From: Deltaproteobacteria bacterium
Lineage (GTDB): Bacteria > Desulfobacterota > Desulfobacteria > Desulfobacterales > C00003060
Reading direction: 5' to 3'
NCBI GenBank assembly: GCA_030592345.1
Contig: JAUVJO010000001.1
Coordinates: forward strand, 1-53,925
Length of the DNA stretch: 53,925 bases
The position numbers were made by a program, and so were the translations under genes. Shown piece by piece: positions 347 to 51,508 of this stretch (its first letter is position 1; every line of letters starts with the position of its first letter). The notes below the pieces were generated by a model. That model worked only from the letters and a program-made list of their open reading frames with translations. It did no database searches and was not told where the DNA came from.

Positions 347-499
347 TATACCTCGGAAGGTTGCAAATTGCGTTTTTTTCGGTGAGCAATGAGCATCAAG
401 AGCAAGGCGCGGAATAGCAGGCTATTGCAAGCCTGAGCAACACAGCTATTGGTGTTCATGGCCAGCGAAAAATCGTTATTTGTGGCCTTTCGAGGTATA
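347..499. repeat. imperfect inverted-repeat element (~153 bp)
   Basis: Left arm tatacctcggaaggttgcaaattgcg (347-372) matches the reverse complement of the right arm cgttatttgtggcctttcgaggtata (474-499) at 20 of 26 positions. An inner palindrome caggct-attgca-agcctg lies at 418-435. Confidence 0.4.
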
Positions 500-2834: not shown

Positions 2835-3365
2835 TTGCGGATTGCGGAGTTTAACAATGAGCCAAAATTTTTTAAAGGCCGTATTTGGGGATTATCCCCA
2901 GTTCCAGGATTACAATTCCATACGGTCCGCATTGCAAAACACCAGGGAAAAGAACGATATTCAAAGATTTCGCTGGATACTGGGACGCTTTCTCGGCCCC
3001 ATGCTCCATGCCTATTACAAGGCAGAACCCTTGAGTTTAAAAGGGAACTTCCCAGAAACAGAAAGAATATACTAAGAACGATAGTTGCATTTTCCAATGG
3101 TTCAGGCGGCACGGTGTGCCTTGGTGTTGATGACGACCGAACAGTGGTTGGCGTCCAGGATGATCCCTTTATCCTGGAAGAACGACTTTCCAGCGTTATT
3201 TATGATTCAATCTCGCCCACTCCCAATGTGTTTTTCCAGACAAATATTGACTTTCAGAAAAAAATTTTGGGCTGCGTTATCAGTCGAAATCCTCGACGAC
3301 GTACTGTCAGTACGCCTTACTCGGAAGTCAGATATCATAAAACAGGGATCAGTGTTGTTTACTGA
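2835..3365 (+). pseudogene. fragment of an AlbA_2 (Schlafen-like) DNA-binding-domain protein
   Basis: RTLEFKRELPRNRKNILRTIVAFSNGSGGTVCLGVDDD matches the start of AlbA_2-type ATP-dependent DNA-binding regulators. There is no plausible start near the domain N-terminus. The ORF stops after ~110 aa of domain, abutting the TA pair. Confidence 0.45.
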
Positions 3366-3676
3366 TAAGCAGAATCATGGTCAGGATGTAACGACAGCAG
3401 GCGCAGCCATGAGCCGTCACGATATGCCACTCCACGAAACCCCTTGCTGATTCGGACACTGTAAAGCTTGTTACCGCTTGGACCTTTTTGTGATAGAATA
3501 AGCTCCCATTTTAAACCATAATCTGCATATACCTGTTGCCATGTCATGTTCGCTAATTTTCGCAAGGTATTTAGAATGTTGCACTGATCGCTTTTGGTGA
3601 GGTTGAAAAGCTGTCGTTGAAAGACGGGGTTGTTCAAATCCAAACGTATGTGTTGATGTGTTTTCTGGTTCATCAT
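3359..3676 (-). CDS. putative RelE/ParE-superfamily toxin (105 aa)
   Basis: The size, the C-terminal LYSVRISKGFRGVAYRDGSWLRLLSLHPDHDSAY pattern and the 4-nt overlap with the upstream antitoxin ORF support the call. Confidence 0.5.
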   Translation of the reverse strand: MMNQKTHQHIRLDLNNPVFQRQLFNLTKSDQCNILNTLRKLANMTWQQVYADYGLKWELILSQKGPSGNKLYSVRISKGFRGVAYRDGSWLRLLSLHPDHDSAYQ

Positions 3677-3924
3677 TTGATCCGGGCTTCTAATTCCTCA
3701 AAGTTTGTCTCTTTGGGTGAATTTTCTTCTGCCCAGGCAACAGCTTCATTGAGATCGGTCTGAACATCCGGCCTGTGAAGCCATTTTTCATTATCGGGAA
3801 TGAAGCGCCCCAGCTTGACGATCCAAACGCCTATGTCTATCTCATTTAACATTACGGTTTGACCCGCGTATTTTTTACCCAGGGAGATCTGCCCGCTACT
3901 GCCGACGGTTTTTATAATGTTCAT
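3673..3924 (-). CDS. AbrB/MazE (SpoVT-AbrB) type antitoxin (83 aa)
   Basis: The N-terminal VGSSGQISLGKKYAGQTVMLNEI looped-hinge-like segment fits this family. The ORF is translationally coupled to 3359..3676. Confidence 0.6.
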   Translation of the reverse strand: MNIIKTVGSSGQISLGKKYAGQTVMLNEIDIGVWIVKLGRFIPDNEKWLHRPDVQTDLNEAVAWAEENSPKETNFEELEARIK

Positions 3925-7459: not shown

Positions 7460-9349
7460 ATGTGCGGAATCTGCGGAATATTTAACTTGAACGGCGAACC
7501 AGTATCTCCGGTGAACTTGCGGAAAATGACCGATGCCATCGCCCACCGCGGGCCAGATGGAGAGGGGTTCTACATCGATAGCTTCATCGGGCTGGGTCAT
7601 CGAAGGCTGGCCATCATTGACCTTTCTCCTGCTGGCCACCAGCCCATGCTTTCACCGGACGGTAATCATGCCTTGACCTACAATGGTGAAGTATACAACT
7701 TCCAAGAACTGCGCATGGAATTGGAAAGCCTGGGCCATCAGTTCCGCTCCCGGACCGATTCCGAGGTGGTGCTCCATGCTTACGCCCAGTGGGGAGCTAA
7801 TTGCTTAAACCGCTTCAACGGCATGTTCGCTTTTGCCGTGTGGGACAAGACCAGACAGGAGCTTTTCCTGGCCCGGGACCGCTACGGAATTAAACCGTTG
7901 TACTACACCTTTACAGGCAATTACTTCATTTTTGCTTCAGAGCAAAAAGCAATCCTCACCCATCCTGCTGTTCGTCGGGACATCGACCTGGAGGCTCTGC
8001 TTGAATACTTCACGTTCCAAAATATTTTCACTGACAAAACTCTGCTCAAAGGCATCAAACTTTTCCCTCCTGGCCACTACTCCAGACTCCCTCTTGGCTC
8101 TGCCCTTGTGCCTGACTCCTTCAGCCTTAAGCCTGTCCAATATTGGGACTTCGATTTCCGCGAACCCGAACATCCCGCCACTGAAGCCGAATATATAGAG
8201 GAACTCGACCGCCTTTTCCGTCAGGCAGTAAATCGTCAGCTTATAAGCGATGTGGAACTGGGCTCCTATCTAAGCGGTGGTATGGATTCGGGTTCAATCA
8301 CTGCCATTGCTGCCACCCAACTACCTTATATAAAAACCTTCACCTGTGGCTTTGATCTGCACTCGGCGTCGGGCCTGGAACTAGGCTTTGATGAGCGTCA
8401 GAAATCTGAGTTCATGTCCTATCTCTTCAAGACGGAGCACTACGAGATGGTGCTCAAGGCCGGGGATATGGAACGGGTTTTGCCCAAATTGGCCTGGCAT
8501 CTGGAAGAACCCCGGGTGGGTCAAAGTTATCCGAACTTCTACGCGGCACAATTGGCTTCCAAGTTTGTCAAGGTGATCTTGACCGGCTCAGGTGGCGACG
8601 AATTGTTTGCTGGCTATCCCTGGCGCTATTACCGTGCTATTGTTAATGATAGTTTTGAAGGCTACATTGACAAATATTACGCATTTTGGCAACGCCTGAT
8701 TCCTAACAGAACTATCCACAACGTGTTTCGGCCTGTGTGGAACGAAGTTGGACACGTTTGGACCCATGATATCTTCCGCGATGTTTTTCGGGAACAGGCA
8801 CACAATCTCGCGACGCCTCAAGACTATATAAATCATTCACTGTATTTTGAGGCAAAAACTTTCCTTCACGGCCTTCTCGTCGTTGATGATAAACTGAGTA
8901 TGGCCCACAGCCTGGAAACACGGGTGCCTTTTTTAGACAATGACCTTGTCGATTTTGCTATGCAGGTGCCTGTAACCCTGAAGCTACAGAACCTTAAAGA
9001 AGTCATCCGCATAAGCGAAAACGAGCCCGGCAAGGTCAAAAAGCATTTTGAAAAAACAAGAGACGGTAAATTAGTCCTGAGAAAAGTCATGGGACGCTAT
9101 GTGCCCGAAACCATTACCAGCGGTATCAAGCATGGCTTTTCCGCACCTGACGCGTCCTGGTTCAAAGGTGACAGCATTGAATATGTGCAGAAGATTATCT
9201 TTAAAGATAATGCTCATATTTACAACTACCTGGATCGAAAGGCGTTACAAGAACTGGTACAGGAACATCTCGATGGCGCGATTAACCGGCGATTGCTCAT
9301 CTGGTCAGTGCTGAATTTTGAATGGTGGCTGAGGAAGTATCTTGCTTAA
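7460..9349 (+). CDS. AsnB-family glutamine-dependent amidotransferase, paralogue 1 (629 aa, short class)
   Basis: MCGICGIF (Cys2 nucleophile), HRGPD, HRRLAIIDLSPAGHQPM, YNGEVYN, SDSEV and the PP-loop LSGGMDSGS are present. The start lies 2 nt after the DegT stop. Confidence 0.9.
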   Translation: MCGICGIFNLNGEPVSPVNLRKMTDAIAHRGPDGEGFYIDSFIGLGHRRLAIIDLSPAGHQPMLSPDGNHALTYNGEVYNFQELRMELESLGHQFRSRTDSEVVLHAYAQWGANCLNRFNGMFAFAVWDKTRQELFLARDRYGIKPLYYTFTGNYFIFASEQKAILTHPAVRRDIDLEALLEYFTFQNIFTDKTLLKGIKLFPPGHYSRLPLGSALVPDSFSLKPVQYWDFDFREPEHPATEAEYIEELDRLFRQAVNRQLISDVELGSYLSGGMDSGSITAIAATQLPYIKTFTCGFDLHSASGLELGFDERQKSEFMSYLFKTEHYEMVLKAGDMERVLPKLAWHLEEPRVGQSYPNFYAAQLASKFVKVILTGSGGDELFAGYPWRYYRAIVNDSFEGYIDKYYAFWQRLIPNRTIHNVFRPVWNEVGHVWTHDIFRDVFREQAHNLATPQDYINHSLYFEAKTFLHGLLVVDDKLSMAHSLETRVPFLDNDLVDFAMQVPVTLKLQNLKEVIRISENEPGKVKKHFEKTRDGKLVLRKVMGRYVPETITSGIKHGFSAPDASWFKGDSIEYVQKIIFKDNAHIYNYLDRKALQELVQEHLDGAINRRLLIWSVLNFEWWLRKYLA

Positions 9350-18068: not shown

Positions 18069-18137
18069 ATATCGACTGGCCAGCCCAACCAAAAAAGAAT
18101 TTGGCGGTACAAGATCAACCAATTGAAATTAGGAAAA

Positions 18138-18926
18138 ATGCTGAGAAACATGTTCTATTCCATGGTCGAGAATCGCGAACTGGTCTGGGAAATGGCCATC
18201 CGCGATATCAAGCAATTGAACAAAGGGGCCTTTCTCGGTATGTTGTGGACTGTGCTGGGCCCATTGGTACAGGTTGCCGCATATGTTATCGTAGTTTCAT
18301 TTGTTTTTAAAAGCCGGCTAGGAGATAATTCAGGACCGTTCGATTACGGGGTTTATGTTCTTTCAGGCATGATTCCATGGCAGATCATGAATAAGTCGCT
18401 TATGGAAGCTCCCTCGTTAATTCGCAGTCGGATGGAACTTGTCAAACAGGTCATTTACCCCATTGAGACGCTCCCCATCACCAGCCTCATTGTCGGGTCA
18501 ATCGGATCTTTCGTCTCATTTCTGATTTTTTTTGTACTTTCTGCAATTTCCGGAAATCTGAATTGGAGCATCCTACTCTTGCCTGTCCCTTTCTTTTTTC
18601 TGGTGATCTTTCTAATCGGCACTGCGTGGTTTTTTTCTATTGCCGGAATATTGTTTAAGGATTTAAGAGAGGTCGTTTCTGTATTTCTCGGACTACTGGT
18701 TTATTTATCCCCTGTAATAGCCAGCGAAACGATGACTGGTGAAACGATATGGAAAATCATTTTGTGCAACCCTCTTGCCCACGTAGTGATCTGCTTCAGG
18801 GACATATACAATGCCACCTTTCATCCAGCAAGTTGGGGCCTGTTCGTAGGAATGGCTATAACCTCTCTTCTTCTCGGAGGATGGGTGATCACCAAAACCA
18901 AAATGATGATTAATGAACACATTTAG
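18138..18926 (+). CDS. wzm: ABC-2 type polysaccharide export permease
   Basis: The RELVWEMAIRDIK N-terminal motif is followed by about six hydrophobic segments. ATG 18138 has an AGGA upstream. The track start is TTG 18123. Confidence 0.85.
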   Translation: MLRNMFYSMVENRELVWEMAIRDIKQLNKGAFLGMLWTVLGPLVQVAAYVIVVSFVFKSRLGDNSGPFDYGVYVLSGMIPWQIMNKSLMEAPSLIRSRMELVKQVIYPIETLPITSLIVGSIGSFVSFLIFFVLSAISGNLNWSILLLPVPFFFLVIFLIGTAWFFSIAGILFKDLREVVSVFLGLLVYLSPVIASETMTGETIWKIILCNPLAHVVICFRDIYNATFHPASWGLFVGMAITSLLLGGWVITKTKMMINEHI

Positions 18927-18930
18927 GAAC

Positions 18931-19036
18931 TATAGGCTTTAAGATAAAGATTTTGGAAAGGCCAGAGGAAGGAAGGCGTACTCGTCGTACGTTGACGACC
19001 GATAACGCATCCAAAATCTTTATCTTAAAGCCTATA
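18931..19036 (+). repeat. nested-palindrome element, copy A1 (106 bp)
   Basis: Perfect 26-bp terminal inverted repeats: tataggctttaagataaagattttgg (18931-18956) and its reverse complement (19011-19036). The core contains aaggccagagg, the hairpin gcgtac-tcgtc-gtacgt, and cgaccgataacg. Confidence 0.9.
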
Positions 19037-19126
19037 ATCCACGAACGACAGCAAGTGGCACAAGCGAGAAATGTGATCTTCCTGCCCCTCTCGCCAGGTC
19101 GTTAAGTTATTGTAAGAGGCAATCGA

Positions 19127-20380
19127 ATGCCAGAAAACGCCATTGAGCTGCACAATGTCTCCAAGCGATTCAAATTATATCACAATTCCATCAGTGGTCC
19201 TGTTAAAGAATTGCTCTTTTTTTGGAAGAGTCATAATTATTACCAGGAATTTCTAGCCGTTAAGGGTGTGTCTCTCACTATAGAAAAAGGGGAGACTGTT
19301 GGAATCATTGGCCCCAACGGCGCTGGCAAAACTACTTTATTAAAGATGATAGCGGGGTTGCTCGCAGTCGACGAAGGTAAGGTCATCGTCAATGGTAAAA
19401 TTACAGCGTTACTTGCCTTAGGCATCGGTGTCCATCCTGAATTCACCGGCAGGGAAAATATCTATTATGGCGGGATGTTGATCGGAATGTCGAGGGAGGA
19501 GGTGCTACTAAAAACCCCGAATATTATTGAGTTTGCCGAGCTGGGAGATTTTATCGATCGCCCCTTTCGTACGTATTCATCCGGAATGAAGGCCCGACTG
19601 CTTTTTGCCATTTCCATGAGTATCGATCCTGACATATTAATCGTGGACGAAGCACTGGCTAGCGGAGATACATACTTTGTGAACAAATGTTCACAACGTA
19701 TTCGAGAAATCTGTAAAAGCGGAGCGACGATTATATTTGTTTCCCATAACTTGACACAAATTGAACAACTCTGCCAGAGAGCTTTCTTTATGGCAGAAGG
19801 ACAGATGTTAAACGACGGGCATCCGTCAAAGATCGTAACACAGTATCATCGCTGGGTTTTTGATAAGGACGCACAAGCACCACTCATTACAGAGCAGCCG
19901 GAACTAGAATCCATCAGCGGTACAAAAGACGTTATCATTACTGACATTAAACTGAAAAGCGCTAACGGCCGCGAAAGCACAGGTTTCTTCACAGGCGAAA
20001 ACATGTGTATGGAAATTTACTACAATGCAACCGCACATGCGACAAACGAGAAAATTAATCTATTTATTGGATTCAAACTCTGCAATAGTGGTCAGTATGT
20101 TGGAGAAATCCAAACAAGATACAACGTCGATAGTCTAATGTCACAAGCAAAGCAGGTAGTTTTGGATGTCTATCAAAAGGGCATGATAGAAATAACTTTT
20201 AATCCCTTGCTATTGCTCAATAATCATTACGCGTTGTGGATCATAATTGAAAGCCACGATGTCGTGCGCTATTGCGAATATACAAATGTTTCCCCCTTCT
20301 TCGTTTCCAGGAGAGATCGTTCCATTGCACGCGGTCCAATATTTTTGCAACCCGCTAAGATCGCAACCAAAAAGCAGTGA
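19127..20380 (+). CDS. wzt: polysaccharide export ABC transporter ATP-binding protein with C-terminal extension
   Basis: Walker A GPNGAGKTT, signature YSSGMKARL and Walker B ILIVDE are present. About 170 aa lie beyond the NBD, as in Wzt proteins carrying a glycan-terminus-binding domain. Confidence 0.9.
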   Translation: MPENAIELHNVSKRFKLYHNSISGPVKELLFFWKSHNYYQEFLAVKGVSLTIEKGETVGIIGPNGAGKTTLLKMIAGLLAVDEGKVIVNGKITALLALGIGVHPEFTGRENIYYGGMLIGMSREEVLLKTPNIIEFAELGDFIDRPFRTYSSGMKARLLFAISMSIDPDILIVDEALASGDTYFVNKCSQRIREICKSGATIIFVSHNLTQIEQLCQRAFFMAEGQMLNDGHPSKIVTQYHRWVFDKDAQAPLITEQPELESISGTKDVIITDIKLKSANGRESTGFFTGENMCMEIYYNATAHATNEKINLFIGFKLCNSGQYVGEIQTRYNVDSLMSQAKQVVLDVYQKGMIEITFNPLLLLNNHYALWIIIESHDVVRYCEYTNVSPFFVSRRDRSIARGPIFLQPAKIATKKQ

Positions 20381-20441
20381 GAATCATAAGATTCATCTGC
20401 AGAATCGTATCCACAAAATTTATATGTAGTGTAACGCTTCC

Positions 20442-21404
20442 ATGAACCAAGTTACGGTAATAGCTGTCTTGGGGTTAAGCTATTGTGGTAGCACCTTGCT
20501 TAACTTCATGCTTGACTCGCATCCTGATATTTACGGGGGAGGTGAATTACTCTGGCTTCTGCGGAAAAAATACGGGGATGGAGCCACTAACGTACAATGC
20601 ACGCATTGTCATGAACATTGTTCTTTCTGGACACCTGAAGCTCTTTCAGAAGTTTGTGAATCACGTTTTTACGATTATATTGGTGGCTTATTTAACGTAA
20701 GAGTTCTTGTCGATACATCCAAAAACCCAAGTTGGTTTGAAAATATCAGAAAACATCCATCTAACCGAGAGGCTCACTTTGTATATGTGATCCTTACTAA
20801 GCATCCCATACGTCATATAGCTTCCTTTTTTACAAATACACTGTACAGGAAAAGTGACGACTACCTCCTCAATGCTCTAGCCAGACTCTTTTCATATCAA
20901 CTACCCCTCAGCAGCAAAGGTCGTTCCCAAGCTAAGATGTTTATCGATAAGAGGTTGAAAAAACGCTTCCTGTCATCGATTATCAGGCTGATCTACGGCT
21001 ATTATTACAATCTTTTCATGAATATAGCTAGGACTTCAGGGGGAAGTCCGGTCCAGGTAATACAGTATGAAAATCTCGTTGCCTGTCCGGAAGTAACACT
21101 ATCTCCCGTACTTGAACTTTGTGGCTTGGAATATGTATCATCAATGCAACAGTGCTTCAAATATCCACATCATCAAATCGGAGGCAATGCCGGCCCAATC
21201 TACCAGGCTTCACATTCACGTATATGGGGAGACGCAGACGATCCCGGAAACGCTTTACGCAAGAAACAGTACGATCTGCATAGCGGTATTTTTCTTGATA
21301 ATAAGTACCAAAAACTTTTTGACTCTCATGAGATACGTTGGTTAAGTAGCATTAAATCTGTCTCCAGCCTTTGCAAAATGCTTGGATATAATACCCTTCC
21401 TTAG
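20442..21404 (+). CDS. sulfotransferase-family protein
   Basis: The 5'-PSB-like GLSYCGSTLLNFMLDSHPDI, the 3'-PB-like VILTKHPIRHIASF and YENLVACPEVTLSPVLELCGLEY are present. There is a Cys/His-rich insert CTHCHEHC. Confidence 0.6.
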   Translation: MNQVTVIAVLGLSYCGSTLLNFMLDSHPDIYGGGELLWLLRKKYGDGATNVQCTHCHEHCSFWTPEALSEVCESRFYDYIGGLFNVRVLVDTSKNPSWFENIRKHPSNREAHFVYVILTKHPIRHIASFFTNTLYRKSDDYLLNALARLFSYQLPLSSKGRSQAKMFIDKRLKKRFLSSIIRLIYGYYYNLFMNIARTSGGSPVQVIQYENLVACPEVTLSPVLELCGLEYVSSMQQCFKYPHHQIGGNAGPIYQASHSRIWGDADDPGNALRKKQYDLHSGIFLDNKYQKLFDSHEIRWLSSIKSVSSLCKMLGYNTLP

Positions 21405-21702
21405 ATTCACCATCCTCGTGCTGATGGTAAAGGCTTCCTTGCTCTATTTCGTAAACACCCAAGTCGCAGCCATTCCCGACGGTTTTATCAAGTCGGGTAT
21501 CCAAAATATCAGACTTTCCCAGCCTGATTTGTGTGGCTTAAAACTCTTCCCGGCTTCCTCAGATTACTTTTATCCTAATGACATCTGTAACCGCTAATAC
21601 TCCTGAACTTGGTCGTTCCAAGCGGTATATGCACACAAAAAGTTTTTGGGACCGTAGCACGCTCATAAAAATTCCTAAAAAATCCATGGATATTATAGCA
21701 CA

Positions 21703-22995
21703 ATGAAGCCAAAAATCGCGTTCTATGGAAATAATCTGAACTTCGGTTACTTTTTTGTAAAGCATTTCACAGAGTTTGGTTTGCAGGCCAAACTTTTTTT
21801 GATTGAATATCCCTGCGCCCAGGAACTTCATGAGTGGTGGACCGACAAGGAGGTTGACACAAATATTGTACGAATTGTGAACTCTACTGGTTTCAAATGT
21901 GGCGGCAGGAAAAGACTACGAAACATACCTGAAATCAGGCAACTCTATGAAGAGGTGAAAGCCTTTGACGTTATTATGATGATGGAAGACGGCCCTGCGC
22001 TATTTAGTGAGTTGGAGGGTGTCAAAAAAGTCTTTCTGTCAGCGGGAGCTGATCTTCAAATATTCCCCTTTTTATTGAGAGTTTGCTACTCACCTAAAGA
22101 TGTGCTCAAGAAGCTCATGTCCAACTTAGGCCTAGTCCTGCTGGGCAATATGAAGGCAATGTTCAACAGTTATTCCTATATCTGTGAAATTCTCAGTAAC
22201 TTCCGTTTTCAGTCCAGGCAAAGAAAGGGTCTCCATCAATCTGACGCGCTCATTTGTGCTCCCCATCAGAAAGTTTTGATTGATCAGCTCAACCTTTGTC
22301 ATAACAAAATTCATTATTTGACCGCGCCGATGGACACCTCTATTCTAGCCGAAATATATCAAGATATGGTTTGCCTTCTCGAAAAGAAATATGCTGACCT
22401 TGATATATTATTCTTCCATCCTACCCGACAATTTTACCTCAAGGAATATAACGATAAGTTTATGAAGGACAACGATAAATTACTCTATGCCTATGCCCGC
22501 TTTTTGAAAAACACAACCAGAAGAGTCAGGCTCATCTTGATCCTCAAGGGACGAGAAAAAGATATTGCCCATAGCCAGCGATTAATCAGGCAAATGAATC
22601 TCGAAGACTATGTGGAATGGTTGCCCGAGATGCCCAATAAAAAATTGAGAGCTTATTATTCTCTCGAAAAGGTGGTCGTATGTGACCAGTACAGCCCTAA
22701 TTTGGCGACCTTAGGAAATATTGGGCGGGAAGCCACTTTCTATGGCAAGATCCTTATTACTGCTTTTGCTGATTGGAACAAGGCTTATTATGGCCAAGAC
22801 TTACCTCCAAATGTTTTCCCAGCGCATACTATTGATAACATTTTCTCTGCCATGAAAAAAGTGACTTCTTTAAGCCGGGAAGAAATTGAAAAATTACGTT
22901 ATGCGGCCATTCTGTGGTTTCACCGAAACCTGGCCAAAGAAACCTTGCTCCCCAAATATATCGACTTGATATTAACCCTACTAAGGAGCACCTGA
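21703..22995 (+). CDS. putative GT-B fold glycosyltransferase
   Basis: The C-terminal half (ILILKGREKD...NLEDYVEWLPEMPNKKLRAYYS...IGREATFYGKILIT) resembles the GT1/GT4 donor-binding domain. Weak call. Confidence 0.4.
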   Translation: MKPKIAFYGNNLNFGYFFVKHFTEFGLQAKLFLIEYPCAQELHEWWTDKEVDTNIVRIVNSTGFKCGGRKRLRNIPEIRQLYEEVKAFDVIMMMEDGPALFSELEGVKKVFLSAGADLQIFPFLLRVCYSPKDVLKKLMSNLGLVLLGNMKAMFNSYSYICEILSNFRFQSRQRKGLHQSDALICAPHQKVLIDQLNLCHNKIHYLTAPMDTSILAEIYQDMVCLLEKKYADLDILFFHPTRQFYLKEYNDKFMKDNDKLLYAYARFLKNTTRRVRLILILKGREKDIAHSQRLIRQMNLEDYVEWLPEMPNKKLRAYYSLEKVVVCDQYSPNLATLGNIGREATFYGKILITAFADWNKAYYGQDLPPNVFPAHTIDNIFSAMKKVTSLSREEIEKLRYAAILWFHRNLAKETLLPKYIDLILTLLRST

Positions 22996-22997
22996 TA

Positions 22998-23765
22998 ATG
23001 TCTGCCCTAATGGAAGAACCGTATCAGATCTATCAGGGGATACCTTGCTATTTGGAGAATATTCCCCAAAGCCCTTATCGCGATTCTACAAACTTGAAGC
23101 TTTATAAAAATAGATTTCATACCCATATTCAGAAAACTTATATTTATGAAAAAATGTTGCTGCCCAATGCAAAAAGTGCAGCCAACATTCTCTCGGTTGG
23201 CGAAGGGACCGGTGAAGTCATTGCTTCATTGGCAGCAAAATATCCCGAACTCAATTTTTTTGCCTTTGATTACGCACCAGAGCGCGTTATCATAGCTTAT
23301 AAATTGATGAATTACCTGCGACTAACCAATGTCAAGCTTTACATCGGCTCAGTTGAATGGATTCCATTTCCAAAAAACTTCTTCTCCGCAGTAATAGAGA
23401 GAGGAGTATTTCATATCTTGCCAAAAGAGGTTAAATTAAAGAATTTAGCTGAGATCGAAAGGGTGTGCGACGGGCAGGTCGTTATGAGTCATATGACTAA
23501 CGCGAATATGTATATAATCGTTCGATGGTTGCAGAGTAAATATTACAATAATCAAAAGATCTGGGATGACGCTATCGCTACTTACCGAAACATTGATAAA
23601 GAGTGTAACAATCTGACCAAGATGGCCAAATTTGTGCAGGCAAAAACAAGGCACTCAGTTAAAACAATTTATAACTTCAAGCAAAATCGCGAAATTTCAT
23701 ATTCAACAAACCACCTCACCTTTTTTCAATACTTAGGAGGGCTGACCTATTCGACCCGTCATTAA
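22998..23765 (+). CDS. class I SAM-dependent methyltransferase
   Basis: Motif I ILSVGEGTGEVIASLA and AFDYAPERV are present. ATG 22998 has an AGGAG upstream and follows the upstream TGA by 2 nt. The track start is 22914. Confidence 0.7.
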   Translation: MSALMEEPYQIYQGIPCYLENIPQSPYRDSTNLKLYKNRFHTHIQKTYIYEKMLLPNAKSAANILSVGEGTGEVIASLAAKYPELNFFAFDYAPERVIIAYKLMNYLRLTNVKLYIGSVEWIPFPKNFFSAVIERGVFHILPKEVKLKNLAEIERVCDGQVVMSHMTNANMYIIVRWLQSKYYNNQKIWDDAIATYRNIDKECNNLTKMAKFVQAKTRHSVKTIYNFKQNREISYSTNHLTFFQYLGGLTYSTRH

Positions 23766-23823
23766 CCTTATTATACCGAAGACATTATCTAAAGAACTGA
23801 CTCTTACATTACATAATTTGTCG

Positions 23824-25110
23824 ATGCTTTTTCAGGCGGACTTAAATGTTAATATCCAGTATCAACGTGATATTGTAAGTTTAATTTATAAATCGGCAGA
23901 AATTGAACTTATCTCACCTGATCTATTTGAGTGGAGAAATATGCCGCTCCAAATAGTTAAATGGCGTGGAATACTTTTGCCACAGGTCCGTGAAATCAAT
24001 TGTAAATATCCTGATGTACTTGGTCTTCTCTTCTATCTATCTCATGATATTGAGGAACTCAGGCAAGAAGCACTTTATCCCCATGAGCGTTATGATATCA
24101 AGAGATCTTCCTTGCGAGGTGTTTATCATTCCAATTATGTGGACCAACTAATTGCTGTATTGAAGAAAGAGCTAGGTTTATCTACTGCAAATGATTGTGG
24201 TGTCATCCTGACACATGATTTGGACTTCTTGTCAGTAATTGATGTAACGCGATTAGTTTTAATCAAAACGACAGCAAGAGATATGATCGAAAGTCGGCCA
24301 ACTAGAGCCAAAATAGGTTTGTTAATATACCTTGGCGCATTACTGTTGCGCCCTTGGCGATTTATGGAAAACTTTGAATTCTTGGAATGGGCCAAGGAAG
24401 AGAAAAAACTCGGTTTTCGTAGTGTTTTTTTCGTATTCGCACATGATCGAAGAAAAAATTTTCCTGGTGACGCTTGGTATAACTACAACTACAGAGATCG
24501 CAAATTTCCGTTTAGAACTTTGAGAAGATCATTAAAAGCACTGTTGAACCAGGGATTCATCATAGGACCTCATTTTTCTCGTTCTTCCAATTACGAAAAG
24601 GAAGAGATATTAAGGGAGTACAGATCAATCAACCGAGAATTGGATTTTAATGCATATGTAACAAGGAATCATTGGCTATGGATCAAGTATTCAAATTGGT
24701 ATGACTACCTAAAAGAACTCGGCGTAGAATTTGATTTTAATAATTGCGCGATAGGGTATTCAAAAGGAACATCGTACCCATTACTGACCCGGAATTATTC
24801 AACCATGACCTTTCCTACGACGTATTTGGACGATGTCGTATTGAAAACGAAGAATTTATACCTCAATGAGCTGAATGCTCTCAATCTTTTAAAATGTCAG
24901 TTAGATAATCTGCAGAATCTCGGTGGGTGTATTGCTATTTCATTTCACCCTGCCGAAGACGGCCCCACAGGTACATATCAGGTAAAGAACAAATTGGAAT
25001 TTTATAAATCAATATTGATACTGCTACGTCATAGAGGTATACCTGTATATACTCCTAACGAAGCCAAACGTGTCTTTACTCGAAAGGTGATATTTAATTG
25101 TGCTCTTTAG
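23824..25110 (+). CDS. hypothetical protein, deacetylase-like (paralogous pattern to 12395..13303)
   Basis: VILTHDLDFLS, IIGPHFSRSS, VTRNHWLW and AISFHPAED occur in the same order as the motifs of 12395..13303. AT-rich gene. Confidence 0.35.
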   Translation: MLFQADLNVNIQYQRDIVSLIYKSAEIELISPDLFEWRNMPLQIVKWRGILLPQVREINCKYPDVLGLLFYLSHDIEELRQEALYPHERYDIKRSSLRGVYHSNYVDQLIAVLKKELGLSTANDCGVILTHDLDFLSVIDVTRLVLIKTTARDMIESRPTRAKIGLLIYLGALLLRPWRFMENFEFLEWAKEEKKLGFRSVFFVFAHDRRKNFPGDAWYNYNYRDRKFPFRTLRRSLKALLNQGFIIGPHFSRSSNYEKEEILREYRSINRELDFNAYVTRNHWLWIKYSNWYDYLKELGVEFDFNNCAIGYSKGTSYPLLTRNYSTMTFPTTYLDDVVLKTKNLYLNELNALNLLKCQLDNLQNLGGCIAISFHPAEDGPTGTYQVKNKLEFYKSILILLRHRGIPVYTPNEAKRVFTRKVIFNCAL

Positions 25111-25298
25111 TTCTACTTCGTAGATTCTGCTGAAAATCTGTTTTGAAGCTTTTTACACATACTCTTTATTTATTCATTCTGCGAAATGGCTTTTTCTGAT
25201 TCTTAAGTCAGATATGCGCAGCCCTTTTTTCATCCCTCATGACTGGAGCGGGAATTACTGTTTGACGACTAACAACAATTCAACGGCCAATACTTCAA

Positions 25299-26672
25299 AT
25301 GATCAATAGCCGTTGTGGGCCAGTTTGTCGCCATGACAAAATGAGTGAATCAGTTTCAAAATCAGCAATAAAATCAACTCGTGTTCTTTTCCTGGCATGG
25401 GGATTTTCTATTCATGCAAAAAGACGCATTCAGCTTTTTGTTGATGACCCGCATTTCGCAGTCGCCGTTGTCTCAACGCATAATTACAATTTTGAAGATG
25501 CCAAGAATTTCTTGCTGACCGGGAAGAAAGTCGAAAAGCAAACAGATGGGTCTTTTATTTCTCGAAAAGAGCCGCTGCTGGTAAAGGGGCAAGTTGCTGG
25601 TATTCGAGGAAGCCTTCGTAAAATCCTTGATAAGTTAGAACCGCGGCCCAAGGATTTCAAAGTGATTCAACAGCTTTTGTCCACTCTAGGGATTTGTTCT
25701 GAAGTGGGTAAAGCAATTAAGGATTTTCAAATACTCAAATCGGCTGTTGAGGACTTCAATCCTGATGTCGTTTTTTTACAGACCCTCTTTTATCCATGTT
25801 ATCTTGCCTATTTTCTGCCCCAATCAGTTCCCATAATTGTTACCTTTTGGAATGGTGATGTTACTTGGTGGGCCAAATGGACCGGGGTTGAGCGTTTGAT
25901 GAAAAAGCAGTTGGTTAGGCATGGCGTTCACCGAGCAACAGCCATAACAGTTAACTCCCAAAAGGCGCTTGATGCGTGTCTTCGCTACGGCGTGCAAGCC
26001 GAGAAAATTAATCTCATCCGCTATCCTGGTGTAGAACTTAAACGTTTTAAGCCTTTGCCAAAGATGGAGGCAAGGAAAGTCCTCGCAATTGCCTCTCGCA
26101 AAGTGGTCCTCTGCCCACGCGGTCTAGGAGGGTATCTGAACAGCGATATTATTGTTGCGTCGGCCCCCAGCGTGGTAAAACAATACCCTGACACCCTTTT
26201 TCTTTTCATATCGGATGTTGGGGGTGAATCAGAATTGAGAAAACACTACGAAATGGCCCTTGAACTCGGAATAGAGGAAAATGTCAGATGGGAGGGACAT
26301 GTCTCATGGGACACAATGCCAACATACTATGCTTCGTCCGACGTGATGGTTTCCCTTTCGTCAAACGATTCACTGCCCAACTGCATGCTTGAGGCTATGG
26401 CATGTGGGGTCCCGGTAATTATGGGCGATATTCCGCAAATACGCGAGTGGATTCTGGATGGCGTTAACGGCTTTCTTGTGCCCCCCCGAAGCCCGGTTGC
26501 TTTGTCAGAAAAGATCATAGAAGTGTTTGAGGGTTTCAATTGGAATGTTAAAGCCCTTGCTGAAGGAAACCGTGAACGTGTTGGTCATGAAGTCGATAGT
26601 GTAAAAAATGCCAGGCAAGTTAAGAATTTGGTACGTTGGGTTGCAGGATATCAGAACGGTTTAATCGAATAA
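25299..26672 (+). CDS. glycosyltransferase family 4 (GT-B)
   Basis: PNCMLEAMACGVPVIMGDIPQIREWILDGVNGFLVPP is the E-x7-E region. An alternative start is ATG 25341. Confidence 0.85.
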   Translation: MINSRCGPVCRHDKMSESVSKSAIKSTRVLFLAWGFSIHAKRRIQLFVDDPHFAVAVVSTHNYNFEDAKNFLLTGKKVEKQTDGSFISRKEPLLVKGQVAGIRGSLRKILDKLEPRPKDFKVIQQLLSTLGICSEVGKAIKDFQILKSAVEDFNPDVVFLQTLFYPCYLAYFLPQSVPIIVTFWNGDVTWWAKWTGVERLMKKQLVRHGVHRATAITVNSQKALDACLRYGVQAEKINLIRYPGVELKRFKPLPKMEARKVLAIASRKVVLCPRGLGGYLNSDIIVASAPSVVKQYPDTLFLFISDVGGESELRKHYEMALELGIEENVRWEGHVSWDTMPTYYASSDVMVSLSSNDSLPNCMLEAMACGVPVIMGDIPQIREWILDGVNGFLVPPRSPVALSEKIIEVFEGFNWNVKALAEGNRERVGHEVDSVKNARQVKNLVRWVAGYQNGLIE

Positions 26673-26819
26673 TTTTTCAGTCAGCAAGGAAAAACCATCC
26701 GCGACTACAAACGGTCCACTTCAGCGAATGCACAACGAATGCTCTCGCGCGGATAATTGCTGGAATTATTGCCGTATACCAGACGGGCTGGGCATCTGGC
26801 ATGTGTCCTTTAATCCAAT

Positions 26820-26925
26820 AATAGGCTTTAAGATAAAGATTTGGGATGCGTTATCGGTCGTCAACGTACGACGAGTACGCCTTCCTCCCTCTAGCCTTCC
26901 CAAAATCTTTATCTTAAAGCCTATA
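26820..26925 (-). repeat. nested-palindrome element, copy A2 (106 bp, inverted relative to A1)
   Basis: Position-by-position comparison with the reverse complement of A1 gives 5 differences in 106 nt. Confidence 0.9.
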
Positions 26926-26988: not shown

Positions 26989-27921
26989 ATGACGAAAATA
27001 CTGGTTACCGGCAGTTACGGGACACTTGGGCGGCCATTGGTGCGCGAACTACGCCGACGTGGACATGAAGTGTGGGGGTGTGACTTGCAACATCAAGCCG
27101 ACCAAAATTACATCCGGGCAGATATTGCTTCCTACCGCCAGATAGAGCGAGTCTTTGAGCAAGACTACGACTACGTCTACCACCTGGCCGCTGAGTTTGG
27201 CCGAATCAATGGTGAGGAATACTTCGACACGCTCTGGCACACGAACGTGATCGGCACACGCAACATATTGGAGATACAACGTCAACGTGGTTTCAAACTG
27301 GTCTTTGCCAGTTCGTCCGAAATCTACGGGGACAAACATTGTGAGACCCTCACCGAAGACATAACGCTCCAGGAATCGATCATTCAACAGAATGATTACG
27401 CCATGACGAAATGGGTCAACGAAATTCAATGCCTGAACCTTGCAAAACGGTTTGGCCTGCCAATCGTCCGCCTCCGCTTCTTCAACGCCTATGGGCCGGG
27501 CGAGTCCTATCACAACTATAGAAGCGTGGTTTGCCTGTTCTGCTATCGCGCGCTCCATGGGCTGGCCTACACAGTATACAAAAACTACCACCGCGTCTTC
27601 ATGTATATTGACGATTTCACCCCTACACTTGCCAATGTTATCGAGAACTTCTGTCCTGGCGAGGTGTACAACATCGGGGGCCTGGAATATCGTAGCGTTG
27701 AAGATCTCAGCAACATTATTCTCAACCACCTTGGGCTCAATGATTCACTCCTAACGTACTTGCCTGAAGATGTCCACAATGTCCAGAATAAGCGCCCAGA
27801 TATCTCGCGCGCAGAGAAAGCCTTTGGTCACAATCCGAAGGTGGTGCTAGAAGATGGGGTCATACGAACTATCGAATGGATGAGGCAAATATATGCTGAC
27901 ACTGTGAAATATCCGAGGTAA
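26989..27921 (+). CDS. NAD-dependent epimerase/dehydratase (extended SDR)
   Basis: MTKILVTGSYGTLGRPL, SSSEIYG and YAMTK (YxxxK) are present. An AGGAGGA RBS lies upstream. Confidence 0.85.
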   Translation: MTKILVTGSYGTLGRPLVRELRRRGHEVWGCDLQHQADQNYIRADIASYRQIERVFEQDYDYVYHLAAEFGRINGEEYFDTLWHTNVIGTRNILEIQRQRGFKLVFASSSEIYGDKHCETLTEDITLQESIIQQNDYAMTKWVNEIQCLNLAKRFGLPIVRLRFFNAYGPGESYHNYRSVVCLFCYRALHGLAYTVYKNYHRVFMYIDDFTPTLANVIENFCPGEVYNIGGLEYRSVEDLSNIILNHLGLNDSLLTYLPEDVHNVQNKRPDISRAEKAFGHNPKVVLEDGVIRTIEWMRQIYADTVKYPR

Positions 27922-31681: not shown

Positions 31682-33685
31682 ATGTGTGGAATAGCAGGTA
31701 TTATTGGAAGTCCGGTCAGCTTATCTCTTTTGCCTTGCATAAAAAAAATGACCGACGTCATCCGTCACAGGGGTCCGGACGACGAAGGATTTGTGTTCTT
31801 CAAGCCTGGGCAGGGTAGAATCTGGCTGTACGGCGGCGAAGACACCCCGGACAGTGTGTACAGGGCTGGTTTGGCATATACCCCGGAACGCCCTTTCTCG
31901 GGCCAAAAACATGAAAACGCGACGCTGGCCCTGGGGCATCGGCGTCTTTCGATTTTGGATCTTTCCCCTGCCGGTCATCAGCCCATGTGCACGCCTGACA
32001 GGCGCTACTGGATTGTTTACAATGGCGAAATTTATAATTATCTGGAGATTCGAGATGAACTGATACGCAAAGGGTATCGGTTCCGGTCCAGGAGCGACAC
32101 CGAAGTGTTGCTTGCAGCCTATGTCCACTGGGGGACCGGGGCCCTGAACCGGCTGGTGGGGATGTTTGCCTTTGCCATTTATGACCGGGATGAGGACTGG
32201 CTGTTTCTGGCCCGCGATTTCTTCGGGATCAAGCCTTTGTATTATACGGTTTGGCCCGGTGGCTTCGCCTTCGCCTCGGAGATCAAAGCCCTGCTCACCC
32301 TTCCCCACGTCAGCCGCAAGCTCAACCCTCAGAGAGCCTATGAATACCTGCGCTTTGGCCTTACTGACCATGGAGAGGATACACTATTTAAGGACATCCA
32401 GCAACTCCCAGTGGCTCATTATCTATGTGTGGGCCTTGAAGGAAAAGAAAGCCCCCAGCCTGTCCGTTACTGGGATATTGACCTGAGCAAAAAGGTAGAT
32501 CTTCCCTTTGGCGAAGCGGTGGCCAGAATGAAGAAACTTTTTCTGAAAAACGTAGAGTTGCATTTGCGGAGCGATGTTCCTGTTGGGGCAGCTCTTTCCG
32601 GTGGCATTGATTCTTCGTCCATCGTCATGGTAATGCGGCAACGACATGAACGTAGCCTGGATCTGCATACCTTTTCTTACATTGCTGAGGATTCAAGTGT
32701 AAACGAAGAGAAATGGGTCGACATTGTTGGCAAAGTAGCCAGGGCTTCCACTCACAAGATACGGGCTTCGCCCGATCAACTGCTTTCCGATCTGGATCAA
32801 CTTATCCACATTCAAGACGAACCGTTCGGGAGTACCAGCATTTATGCACAGTACTTGGTAATGCGCCTGGCTGCGGAGAACGGTATCAAGGTAATGTTAG
32901 ATGGCCAGGGAGCGGATGAAATTCTCGCTGGATATCTATTTTATTTTGGTGCCCGCATGGCTTCCCTTGTCAGGCATGGGAAAGTAATTAATGCAGCGCA
33001 TTCTCTCCTGAAAGCTTCGAAATATCCGGGTGTCGGATTAAGGAGCCTCCTTCTTCATTCAGGTGCTTGCCTGTTATCTGAAGCTTTAAGAAATTCAGCC
33101 AGGAGACTCTTTGGCCCCAGCCCGGTTCCCCTGTGGTTAAGCCAATCCTGGTTTTCCACACATGGGATCACATCTCCAAATTACTCAACGGCTTCACGAC
33201 GAGACGTGTTGAGGCAACATCTTTATAGATCCGTCCAAATAGGTCTGCCTTCCCTGCTGCGTTACGAAGACCGCAACTCCATGGCGCATTCCATTGAAAG
33301 TCGGGTGCCTTTCTTGACGCCTGAGTTAGTTCAATTCCTCTTTTCCTTGCCAGAAGAATACCTCATCTCCTCAAACGGAACCACAAAATCCTTATTCCGC
33401 GAAGCGATGCGGGGCATTGTCCCCGACTCCATTCTAAAACGCAGAGACAAAATCGGGTTTGCGACTCCTGAAGAAAAATGGATTCGCCTTCTGCAGCCTT
33501 GGGTGGATTCGCTTTTGAAAAACAACACAACAAGAGGCATCCCTGCATTAAATCTCCCCGGTCTTCATAAGACGTGGCAAAAAGCATTATTGGGCCAGAA
33601 AAAATTTGACTTCACCATGTGGCGGTGCATTAACTTCATCCGTTGGACCGCTCAATATGAAGTCTCACATAGCACATATCCTTAG
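31682..33685 (+). CDS. AsnB-family glutamine-dependent amidotransferase, paralogue 2 (667 aa, long class)
   Basis: MCGIAGII, HRGPDDEG, HRRLSILDLSPAGHQPM, YNGEIYNY, SDTEV, the PP-loop LSGGIDSSSIV and LRYEDRNSMAHSIESRVPFL are present. Confidence 0.9.
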   Translation: MCGIAGIIGSPVSLSLLPCIKKMTDVIRHRGPDDEGFVFFKPGQGRIWLYGGEDTPDSVYRAGLAYTPERPFSGQKHENATLALGHRRLSILDLSPAGHQPMCTPDRRYWIVYNGEIYNYLEIRDELIRKGYRFRSRSDTEVLLAAYVHWGTGALNRLVGMFAFAIYDRDEDWLFLARDFFGIKPLYYTVWPGGFAFASEIKALLTLPHVSRKLNPQRAYEYLRFGLTDHGEDTLFKDIQQLPVAHYLCVGLEGKESPQPVRYWDIDLSKKVDLPFGEAVARMKKLFLKNVELHLRSDVPVGAALSGGIDSSSIVMVMRQRHERSLDLHTFSYIAEDSSVNEEKWVDIVGKVARASTHKIRASPDQLLSDLDQLIHIQDEPFGSTSIYAQYLVMRLAAENGIKVMLDGQGADEILAGYLFYFGARMASLVRHGKVINAAHSLLKASKYPGVGLRSLLLHSGACLLSEALRNSARRLFGPSPVPLWLSQSWFSTHGITSPNYSTASRRDVLRQHLYRSVQIGLPSLLRYEDRNSMAHSIESRVPFLTPELVQFLFSLPEEYLISSNGTTKSLFREAMRGIVPDSILKRRDKIGFATPEEKWIRLLQPWVDSLLKNNTTRGIPALNLPGLHKTWQKALLGQKKFDFTMWRCINFIRWTAQYEVSHSTYP

Positions 33686-41366: not shown

Positions 41367-41511
41367 TTTCCAGTATGCAAAGGGGAGGATTGAAGAATCC
41401 GTGGCTTTTATCACAAAGGAGATGGAGGAGTTTGAAAAGGACGGCCTGAGTGGATTATCCACAGGGACACATGGTGCGATTGGCTATCAAAAAATTGACG
41501 CAGACGGCTAG
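41359..41511 (+). pseudogene. truncated HEPN/DUF86-like partner of the MNT gene (51 codons)
   Basis: The ATG overlaps the MNT stop by 8 nt, a typical MNT-HEPN arrangement. The ORF stops after 51 codons with no RxxxxH motif. It ends where the convergent AsnB gene ends. Confidence 0.4.
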
Positions 41512-46886: not shown

Positions 46887-47004
46887 TATAGGTTTTCAGA
46901 TAATTATTTTCACAAGGCCAGAGGGAGAAATACGAGTAAGGCATACGTGAGAGTATGTTGTCGAGGATTTCGACCAATAACAAATTTATTTCTGAAAACC
47001 TATA
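46887..47004 (+). repeat. nested-palindrome element, copy A3 (118 bp)
   Basis: Terminal arms are tataggttttcagataattattt / aaatttatttctgaaaacctata. The core is aaggccagagggagaaatacgagtaagg, the hairpin catac-gtgagag-tatg, then gtcgaggatttcgaccaataac. Confidence 0.8.
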
Positions 47005-50357: not shown

Positions 50358-50620
50358 GATGAAGAGTGTCAACTACTTTTTGTTTATAATGAAAGATGCC
50401 CTCATTTTCTTGCAATCTCTGGACATGGTCTTTAGTATTTACGTTGCCGTTTACGGCTTGAAACTTGAAATTGGACTGAACATGGCTTTGATTTTGGAAA
50501 CGATTGAGCTTATGGGGTCGATGGTGAAGGCGGTCTTTACCATAAGCATCCGGCAGAAGATCCTACCTTTCATGTACCTATCTGGACAGTAGTGAGTTCT
50601 CTCCAATCTACGAAGTTTAG

Positions 50621-50836
50621 TGTAACTTCTCAAAAAGTCCGGGTAATCTCCCGATAACCGCTAATATGTTGCTACGTAGGGCAAGGTGAACCGCTGAACG
50701 TAGGCATCCAGCCATTTCAATTGATACCTAACCAGTCAGCTACTTAAGGCATTGGAGGCCGAAGTTCAGCGGTTCACCTTGCCCGGAGGCTTGTTGTCAT
50801 AACCTCAAGCGTACCCGGACTTTTTGAGAAGTTACA
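50621..50836. mobile_element. MITE-like non-autonomous element (216 bp) with target-site duplication
   Basis: Perfect 25-bp terminal inverted repeats: tgtaacttctcaaaaagtccgggta (50621-50645) and its reverse complement (50812-50836). A perfect inner 21-bp inverted repeat gggcaaggtgaaccgctgaac lies at 50679-50699 and 50764-50784. Direct gtttag flanks the element on both sides (50615-50620 and 50837-50842). No ORF. Confidence 0.6.
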
Positions 50837-50943
50837 GTTTAGTTTGCTAAGTGCTTGAAATCATTAATTCCGGCAGTTTCATGCCCCATTTTTCAGTGTC
50901 AATGATTTCAATAGGTTACGAGAACTCACTTCTGACCAGTACC

Positions 50944-51068
50944 TATAGAGTTTCAGAAAATGATTTTGGCAAGGCCAGAGGGAGAAATCCGAGTAAAGCG
51001 TACTGACAGTACGTCGTCGAGGATTTCGACCGATAACGCAGCCCAAAATCATTTTCTGGAAGTCTATA
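50944..51068 (+). repeat. nested-palindrome element, copy A4 (125 bp)
   Basis: Terminal arms are tatagagtttcagaaaatgattttgg / ccaaaatcattttctggaagtctata. The core is aaggccagagggagaaatccgagtaaag, the hairpin cgtac-tgaca-gtacg, then tcgtcgaggatttcgaccgataacg. Confidence 0.8.
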
Positions 51069-51508
51069 TCAAAGAGAAGGTGGAAATCGAAGAATTTGTC
51101 GTGAGATGTCTCAACATTTTCAAGGACTGACGAATCTTGTAAGATGAAACCAACTCATCCAGAATCTCCAAGATGGACATCTTGAACGGCAAAAGCGAGC
51201 GGAAATCCCAAAACCGTGTCATCCGTGCCAAAAAAACACCCGCCTTGCGCTATGCTACATGCGCATTCATCCGTGGCAGAAAAAATCAGAGACAGGGCAA
51301 TAATGTCTTTACATCAGAGTCAAAATAAGATAAGTAGCGAAATTTCAAAGGAAATCTGGATGGCTTCTCTATGTAACCCAAGGGGCGAAGCCCTGTAACT
51401 TCAGGTCGATTTACCCAGGCGCTACCCTCCCCTATTTATCGAAATATTAATCAATTGTCTTATTCTGTGCAGATGAAAGTTATAATTTCATGGACGTTGT
51501 TTTCTCCA

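Follow-up and report, generated by a model that had tools for sequence, protein, structure and literature searches.

Hairpin-forming, TA-bounded repeats of Desulfobacterales: a probable miniature transposon family with an asymmetric core

We analysed a stretch of 53,925 nucleotides from a Deltaproteobacteria bacterium (contig JAUVJO010000001.1, positions 1 to 53,925; hereafter the window), in which copies of a short nested palindrome lie in a polysaccharide/O-antigen-type gene cluster. Well over 100 copies of the same element are present in the public genomes that we sampled. Their arrangement, decay and ends indicate that they are probably copies of a non-autonomous DNA transposon, a MITE (miniature inverted-repeat transposable element), that has multiplied in Desulfobacterales genomes.

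Repeat copies in a polysaccharide gene cluster

An initial annotation, made from the sequence of the window, had described a family of four intergenic copies. All four are present at the coordinates and in the orientations that it gave, and are named A1 to A4 below. Every copy sits between open reading frames (ORFs) of the gene cluster, and no ORF is confined to any copy. The limit to four copies did not hold, since the window contains a truncated fifth copy and more than 100 others lie elsewhere. The copies, their parts and their neighbours are as follows.

18931..19036, plus strand: A1, short form, complete, 106 bp; 117 bits with the covariance model
18931..18957, plus strand: 5' terminal inverted repeat of A1, TATAGGCTTTAAGATAAAGATTTTGGA
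18958..18968, plus strand: conserved 5' core block of A1, AAGGCCAGAGG; the purine-rich strand continues after it
18976..18992, plus strand: inner hairpin of A1, GCGTAC-TCGTC-GTACGT; the family covaries at this hairpin
18996..19006, plus strand: conserved 3' core block of A1, CGACCGATAAC
19010..19036, plus strand: 3' terminal inverted repeat of A1, TCCAAAATCTTTATCTTAAAGCCTATA
18123-18926 and 19127-20380: wzm (ABC-2 membrane) and wzt (ABC_tran and Wzt_C), between which A1 lies
26820..26925, minus strand: A2, short form, inverted relative to A1, 106 bp; 110.5 bits
25299-26672 and 26989-27921: glycosyltransferase and NAD-epimerase genes, between which A2 lies
46887..47004, plus strand: A3, long form, the most decayed copy, 118 bp; 46.5 bits; 3' arm partly deleted
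45621-46799 and 47060-48094 (DUF354): genes, both on the minus strand, between which A3 lies
50944..51068, plus strand: A4, long form, 125 bp, with an extra helix GAAATCC/GGATTTC; 92 bits; in the 1.4-kb spacer from the UDP-GlcNAc 2-epimerase gene (49071-50168, minus strand) to an ABC-transporter pair
3244..3325, minus strand: truncated fifth copy of the long form; its 82 nt show 93% complementarity to 50988-51069 (the 3' two-thirds of A4)

The four copies can be aligned over their entire length with a mean column identity of 77%, and A1 and A2 are 95% identical. They fall into two size classes, A1 and A2 on one side and A3 and A4, which have an additional inner helix, on the other. The core blocks AAGGC(C/T)AGAGG and CGACC(G/A)ATAAC were found in all four copies, as the initial annotation had it; the 5' block of A2 is the T variant AAGGCTAGAGG and the 3' block of A3 is CGACCAATAAC. 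A pattern built from these blocks, AAGGCYAGAGGN{25,50}CGACCRATAAC, matches the window 4 times, against 0.00 matches expected from 100 shuffles. The central hairpin likewise agrees with its earlier description, being CGTAC/GTACG in A1, A2 and A4 and CATAC/GTATG in A3, with the loops TCGTC, TGACA and GTGAGAG. Terminal inverted repeats had been ascribed to every copy; they are evident in A1 (27 bp, perfect), A2 (25 bp, 96%) and A4 (26 bp, 92%), but A3 is clean only over its outer 14 bp. Similarly, the termini read TATAG...CTATA except for one end of A2, which is CTATT. Fold z-scores against shuffles range from -5 to -10 for all four copies. Relative to the genes of the window, one copy lies in sense orientation, two in antisense and one is ambiguous.

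In the fifth copy the inner hairpin survives together with the 3' core block (CGACTGATAAC) and the 3' arm; the 5' arm and the 5' core block are absent, and the terminus of the copy has decayed to ..GTCAATAT. Two small overlapping ORFs at 3359-3924 on the minus strand (105 and 83 aa, without a Pfam match) adjoin its break point. The arrangement of the pair resembles that of a two-gene cassette of small size, such as a toxin-antitoxin system, whose arrival may have cut the copy. The inverted pair A1/A2 (18931-26925) brackets 7.8 kb that hold wzt, a sulfotransferase-like gene, glycosyltransferase genes and a methyltransferase gene, and the G+C content of this segment is 0.39-0.41, compared with 0.44-0.49 on either side. 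The segment could be an acquired block bounded by MITEs or an invertible segment. A contig of assembly GCA_028572105.1 matches the window, and the window proteins resemble those of Thermodesulfobacteriota metagenome-assembled genomes (MAGs).

Distribution and signs of mobility

The core pattern matched at least 91 stretches in bacterial and archaeal contigs representing one genome per species; copy numbers and host range taken from this collection are lower bounds. Among the matches listed, carriers are almost all Desulfobacterales and, within these, almost all Desulfobacteraceae. They comprise Desulfosarcina cetonica, D. alkanivorans (AP021874), D. widdelii (AP021875), D. variabilis (CP159846), SEEP-SRB2, Desulfococcus, a Desulfobacterium scaffold and numerous MAGs of Desulfobacteraceae, among others. 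At least 14 loci lie in MAG H1H2.bin.5 and at least 8 in the uncultured Desulfosarcina chromosome OY771548.1. The DNA that we fetched (~0.7 Mb, with loci numbered by the prefix L) contains 109 pattern matches and 103 distinct copies with full flanks, 87 of them short and 16 long. Across the family the short form measures 106 bp and the long form 118-137 bp, and both are non-coding. A covariance model (R1) built on 76 short copies adds tandem units, truncated copies and others whose core has 1-5 mismatches. The ~0.7 Mb fetched for other copies held about 20 additional ones outside tandem arrays, which suggests, as a rough figure, about one copy per 35 kb in carrier genomes.

The only exceptions to Desulfobacterales among the matches listed are two contigs of one Fodinibius MAG. 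There the shared core lies in a unit of ~100 nt with an extra 5' hairpin (CCCGAAGCAUCGGG), at L034:330-470 and L069:1408-1555. The two copies are near-identical over ~100 nt and their flanks have diverged; in L069 the core is enclosed by an unrelated 18-bp outer stem, and in L034 it lies ~190 nt upstream of a membrane-protein gene, which is followed by a globin-like gene.

None of the resources named in this paragraph yielded an already catalogued family. Rfam 15 gave no match at gathering thresholds over the whole window, and with E values up to 10 A1 and A4 gave just generic long-hairpin microRNA precursor matches, far under threshold. PLSDB plasmids, viral contigs of IMG/VR and 5,426 E. coli genomes were likewise without a family match, and searches of the open literature by host, MITE terms and core sequence returned nothing relevant to the element. 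Cyanobacterial repeats (Nezha, SDR and STRR-type), which the base composition and a heptamer-like tandem repeat had suggested at first, were considered and rejected, as the genome matches are Desulfobacterales.

Some copies are arranged in tandem. These arrays hold from 2 to at least 5 units, which measure ~97-99 nt, each comprising the 5' arm, the core and a shortened 3' arm, with the full 3' arm only in the last unit (L036:6971-7544, L083:2731-3044, L001:1308-1601, L043:1-187, L060:9-223, L080:2940-3151 and L053:2522-2824). The junction sequences differ between arrays, and the arrays have an independent origin in several genomes. We rejected the idea that they form a dedicated system, such as an RNA antitoxin, because the neighbouring genes are unrelated housekeeping genes. 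Arms and interiors are also found in other combinations. A closely similar arm (TATAGATTTTCAGATATTAATTTCA..) surrounds a different interior at L045:7057-7193, and palindromes of the type TATAG/TATAA...CTATA/TTATA with different arms and interiors lie at L075:2081-2185 and L026:1375-1491; the three elements measure 105-137 bp. They suggest a wider group of TA-bounded MITEs in Desulfobacterales. Two further copies, L044:2369-2506 and L082:1020-1157, which lie 2.3 Mb apart in OY771548.1, share 16 nt past the 5' end (ATTTCTGGATGAACAC) and ~5 nt past the 3' end. These shared flanks could reflect a longer mobile unit, a preferred target motif or insertion into another repeat.

The initial annotation had also noted that ends bounded by TA would be compatible with a MITE that duplicates a TA target, and the MITE reading gains support from several directions. 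Copies are dispersed: flanks are unrelated between copies, and 95 of the 103 lie outside long ORFs. Their orientation is random, with 17 sense and 26 antisense copies between co-directional genes. Subfamilies are genome-specific, which points to bursts within lineages, and near-identical copies occur within E20SeepSRB2 and within YD0425bin50. Decayed copies (L053:7185, L003:3962 and L059:7764) and truncated copies (window 3244-3325 and L031:111) are present as well. Short-read contigs of the window's organism break inside A1, A2 and A3. Among 76 copies, TATAG is preceded by C in 32 and by A in 25, and CTATA is followed by G in 35, A in 16 and T in 13, giving a C-TA...TA-G context. Two abutting copies in L018 share one TA (..AATTTA-TA-TAGGC..).

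One unoccupied site could be set beside a filled one:

415..416, no strand: unoccupied TA target, ..CGGAA-TA-GCAGGCTATT.., in a GAA-TA-GCA context

At the equivalent site of a distantly related Desulfobacteraceae MAG lies a long-form copy (L049:5820-5944), which reads ..GTCA-TA-[TAG..CTA]-TA-GCTGGCTATT... This is one presence/absence difference, between species-level relatives. The right junction is exact; the left flank shows an 8-nt length difference, and the flanks are ~75% identical. The site belongs to a non-coding stretch, ..TTTTTTCGGTGAGCAATGAGCAT.AAGAGCAAGGC.. to ..TTTCGAGGTATA, that the window (347-499) has in common with L049:5735-6030 at ~75% identity and that lies upstream of the polysaccharide cluster. 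The L049 version ends in a TATAAT-like box and hosts the MITE insertion; the stretch may be a conserved promoter or leader. None of 80 metagenome loci with GDP-mannose dehydratase relatives shares this upstream region or holds the element, the upstream regions of four closer dehydratase (Gmd) orthologues are different, and no record of the epimerase adjoining A4 was found.

Fold, covariation and the asymmetric core

Read on the strand that carries the core blocks (the core-sense strand), the short-form consensus begins TATAG-GCTTTAAGATAATG.TTTTGGC, followed by AAGGCY AGAGGGAGG and a variable hairpin, mostly ..GTAT-loop-ATAC... The 3' half continues with (N)CGACCGATAAC GC and then AG(T)CCAAAA.CATTATCTTAAAGC-CTATA. 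The arms are ~27 bp long and end in TATAG...CTATA, and a 27-bp stem is kept in 76 copies. Conservation within the arms is concentrated in peaks ~9.5 bp apart, TAG (columns 8-10), AGA (17-19), AA (21-22) and TTT (27-29), with troughs between them. Trough positions vary freely, yet the changes are compensated.

Selection on the fold had been argued from the inner hairpin, where one copy shows a compensatory G:C to A:U change. A single change of this kind among four copies is insufficient alone as evidence, and the claim, which had been made for either a structured RNA or a DNA cruciform, is borne out by the larger set. In the 76 short copies, 93.7% of cells are paired; shuffling the columns gives 79.1%, and sliding the partners by 1-3 columns gives 36-42%. 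Changes on both sides are seen in 26 of the 27 outer-stem pairs; pair 11/110, for example, is GC in 27 copies, AU in 24, UG in 8, GU in 7 and CG in 6. The inner hairpin covaries too (GC 66/AU 10, UA 59/CG 11), and the additional helix of the long form occurs as GGAATCC/GGATTCC, GGAATCG/CGATTCC, CCTCCCT/AGGGAGG and GAAATCC/GGATTTC. Since the copies are related, shuffle controls overstate significance, and these counts are indications, not probabilities. Covariation between two terminal repeats does not prove RNA.

Between the arms, the invariant 5' block AGAGGGAGG faces the invariant 3' block GACGACCGAU, and together they give a continuous irregular helix on the core-sense strand: A39-U81, G40·A80, A41·G79, G42-C78, G43-C77, G44·A76, A45·G75, G46-C74, G47·A73 and A48·G72. 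Watson-Crick pairs are interleaved here with tandem G·A/A·G pairs. The structure belongs to one strand, because the opposite strand would give C·U/U·C at these positions. By analogy with the established behaviour of tandem G·A motifs, the purine pairs would be sheared. The register of the helix is supported because two of its non-canonical parts switch to Watson-Crick pairing: in 10-14 copies G-C and A-U stand in place of the third tandem pair (47/73, 48/72), as does a Watson-Crick helix in the long form, and in the divergent copy L073 G44·A76 becomes C44-G76. Readings of the core as a K-turn, a sigma-54 promoter, an IHF site or attC were dropped, as the order or spacing of the motifs is unsuitable. 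The blocks might conceivably be what is left of a lost transposase gene, namely its Shine-Dalgarno sequence and its stop codon.

The core is better conserved than the arms. Part of this is ascertainment, since the alignment was gathered by a pattern that fixes 22 core positions and the invariance of those positions is built in. Core neighbours outside the pattern (G44, A45, G46, C32 and GC 85-86) are still 87-99% conserved, and where a copy was detected independently of the pattern, 1-5 of its 22 positions deviate. The strands also differ in how they fold. G·U pairs outnumber A·C in the stems by 81 to 43 in the curated alignment. For 77 of 101 copies the core-sense strand is the better folder of the two, with a mean advantage of 3.75 kcal/mol. 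Judged from these alignments, the fold is clearly maintained and the whole element is kept as a rod-like hairpin. It most likely matters while the element is single-stranded, because a transposase that touches a few patches would leave the arm complementarity, the covariation of the internal helices and the one-strand core unexplained.

Competing explanations and comparison with known elements

The mechanism that we favour for the MITE combines a duplex and a single-stranded state. A transposase supplied in trans would bind the inverted repeats as duplex DNA; this reading of the arms is preferred because the conserved triplets TAG, AGA and TTT are spaced one helical turn apart, as if contacted by a protein on one face. 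Insertion would take place at TA, preferably C-TA-G, with duplication of the TA, and this target and its context make an enzyme of the IS630/Tc1-mariner type probable. When an element is co-transcribed with its neighbours, the fold would act as RNA, whose long double-stranded stem may be processed by an enzyme of the RNase III type, as happens with Correia and ERIC elements; perfect stems of 27 bp in transcripts are classical substrates of RNase III. Alternatively, single-stranded DNA could be the acting form, either on the template of the lagging strand or as an intermediate of transposition. RNA is favoured of the two because most copies lie inside or beside transcription units.

A number of observations weigh against a MITE. 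The greater conservation of the core is the reverse of what is typical of such elements. The TA duplication rests on one comparison, with flanks of limited identity and an indel beside the left junction. TA is moreover self-complementary, which makes it indistinguishable from an outermost hairpin pair, and where the outer dinucleotides deviate they do so as inverted pairs in 7 cases and as a direct repeat in 1. For the window copies we found no strain-level presence/absence difference: every contig with the exact flanking genes of A1, A2 or A3 either includes the element or stops within it. The ~0.7 Mb of fetched DNA yielded neither an autonomous element with these ends nor a transposase beside any copy; scans for single terminal repeats and for inverted TAG...CTA pairs 160-3500 bp apart gave only MITE pairs and two unrelated pairs without transposase genes (L022:1753-3939 and L047:3185-4627). 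We regard the TA duplication as supported, not proven.

A further reading concerns the core by itself. The invariant asymmetric core, 5' AAGGCY-AGAGGGAGG, a variable hairpin and CGACCGAUAAC-GC 3', forming a one-strand helix with two to three tandem G·A pairs, might be a self-standing functional module and not a transposon remnant, either a new structured RNA or a protein-binding motif in single-stranded DNA, that is coupled to different arms in different lineages. This is suggested by the TATAG arms around the core in Desulfobacterales against the unrelated 18-bp stem and 5' hairpin in Fodinibius, and by the TATAG arms with another interior in L045. We consider this view doubtful; if true, the element would serve to carry a regulatory or decoy RNA from place to place, or would be the site that a novel mobilisation machinery recognises.

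It is unlikely that the element is first of all a structured non-coding RNA, a small RNA gene or a cis-acting mRNA element, with a functional core and only secondary multiplication. Such an RNA would account for the asymmetric core being the best conserved part, for the regular helix that just one strand can form with its tandem G·A pairs, for the excess of G·U over A·C and the better folding of the core-sense strand, for the core with quite different arms in the Fodinibius MAG and for the tandem arrays of 5' arm and core. The invariance of that core is, however, partly built into the search pattern, and the genomic setting speaks against such an RNA: orientation to the flanking genes is unbiased (17:26), the distance to genes is not fixed, decayed and truncated copies are common, and the neighbours of the arrays are unrelated housekeeping genes. 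Neither promoter-like nor terminator-like sites were seen in or at the window copies, and no Rfam family corresponds to them.

Movement or copying as a single-stranded DNA hairpin, by a structure-specific enzyme (an HUH/Y1 transposase, as for REP-RAYT or IS200/IS605, or a tyrosine recombinase, as for integron attC or Xer-dependent elements) and not by a DDE transposase on duplex ends, seems to us quite improbable. Complementarity kept at sequence-variable positions, the strand-specific non-canonical helix, the outer dinucleotides that covary as inverted pairs (7 vs 1) and the failure to find a DDE parent element in ~0.7 Mb would all fit. Against it, the element is 3-5 times as long as a REP and without the GTAG/CGTC head, it has no complementary RYYYAAC/GTTRRRY attC sites, the empty site has one TA and abutting copies share a TA, as in TA-duplicating cut-and-paste elements, and the helical spacing of the conserved triplets, seen in both arms, is what recognition of a duplex would lead one to expect. 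That the hairpin is functionless, its arms kept complementary by intramolecular gene conversion, mismatch repair or the amplification of few masters and its core merely young, is very improbable: genome-specific subfamilies do resemble recent bursts (E20SeepSRB2, YD0425bin50; A1/A2 at 95%) and the shuffle control ignores relatedness, but at least 9 arm variants occur within single genomes, each fully complementary around the same core, the core is common to genera and across a phylum boundary while the arms differ, and G·A pairs have been replaced by Watson-Crick pairs inside the core helix.

Other repeats of the window were noted alongside the MITE copies. A second, unrelated MITE-like element of 216 bp lies at 50621-50836, 108 bp upstream of A4; it has 25-bp perfect terminal inverted repeats (TGTAACTTCTCAAAAAGTCCGGGTA) with a nested 32-bp inverted pair inside, and on either side of it stands the 6-bp sequence GTTTAG (50615-50620 and 50837-50842) as a perfect direct repeat. 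No further copies of it were found in the fetched DNA. At 496-696, ~14 tandem copies of a 14-nt unit (CAGCTTTGAGC(C/T)TT, two related heptamers) sit in a 700-bp non-coding stretch upstream of the GDP-mannose 4,6-dehydratase gene (706-1896). Asparagine-synthase-like paralogues, unusually many for one polysaccharide locus, are encoded at 7460-9349, 31682-33685, 36994-38913, 41508-43532 and 43567-45621; they share YNGEIYN-type stretches and DNA repeats of 70-80% and have an Asn_synthase domain match.

Among the sulfate reducers of marine sediments, Desulfobacteraceae are the main complete oxidisers. They have large, repeat-rich genomes (PMC2702500); the genome paper of Desulfobacterium autotrophicum reported an exceptional number of repeats (PMC2702500). 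In the open literature searched we found no description of small repeats of Desulfobacteraceae. The family accounts for assembly breaks in carrier genomes and offers a marker for strain typing and for reconstructing genome rearrangements. Its copies flag places where operons may be cut or re-wired, such as between wzm and wzt and elsewhere in the surface-polysaccharide cluster.

IS630 inserts at CTAG and duplicates TA. The present element resembles the MITEs of the IS630/Tc1-mariner group (plant Stowaway and bacterial IS630-type) in its apparent TA target in a C-TA-G context, in forming hairpins of the 100-300 bp class, and in the two or three conserved repeat patches at helical spacing that are expected for a bipartite helix-turn-helix transposase. 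It differs in that no partner with matching ends was found in the fetched loci, and we know of no Tc1/mariner repeat that its terminal sequence matches. ERIC/IRU elements of enterobacteria and bcr1 of the Bacillus cereus group are imperfect intergenic palindromes of ~125-155 bp whose RNA folds show compensatory changes and which affect mRNA stability. Their sequences are unrelated to the family described here and their target sites and hosts differ; the 5,426 E. coli genomes were without a match. REP/BIME elements with RAYT transposases are comparable as abundant intergenic palindromes that are sometimes arrayed, and they are recognised as single-stranded hairpins. REPs are 20-40 bp long with a GTAG or CGTC head (PMC3733652). 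Here the element is 106-137 bp with TA-bounded inverted repeats and has no GTAG/CGTC head at either end. Integron attC is set apart as well, since ..CGATAAC has no complementary GTTATCG in the 5' half and the neighbouring genes are ordinary.

The closest analogue is the Correia element (CREE/NEMIS) of Neisseria; we class the family itself as new and of the known MITE kind. Correia elements are non-coding, ~100-155 bp long, with ~26-bp inverted repeats that start with TATAG and with a target duplication (PMC2649163). Their core is directional, no transposase is known for them, and an internal segment distinguishes their two main size classes. Copies number in the hundreds and are mostly intergenic; lone repeats also occur, as do length variants, tandem duplications included. 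The transcribed stem is an RNase III substrate (PMC2649163). The design is shared in the ~26-bp repeats, the directional core and the short and long forms, which is a likeness only and not membership. Also alike are the intergenic bias, the length variants with tandem duplications, the lack of a known transposase and a target duplication, which is probable here. Only the first five bases are common to both: the Correia repeat, TATAG[CT]GGATTAA(CAAAAA/ATTTAAA).. (PMC5039591), begins TATAGTGGATTAA... and the present one TATAGGCTTTAAGATAA..., with the consensus TATAGGCTTTAAGATAATG.TTTTGGC. The host phylum differs too, no IHF site or end-promoter was recognised in the copies studied here, and it is the core, with its G·A-rich helix, and not the repeat that is most conserved. 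The family would be a second, independent Correia-type element without a known transposase, and since its core is conserved beyond apparent mobility needs, it lends itself to studying why elaborate folds persist in bacterial MITEs.

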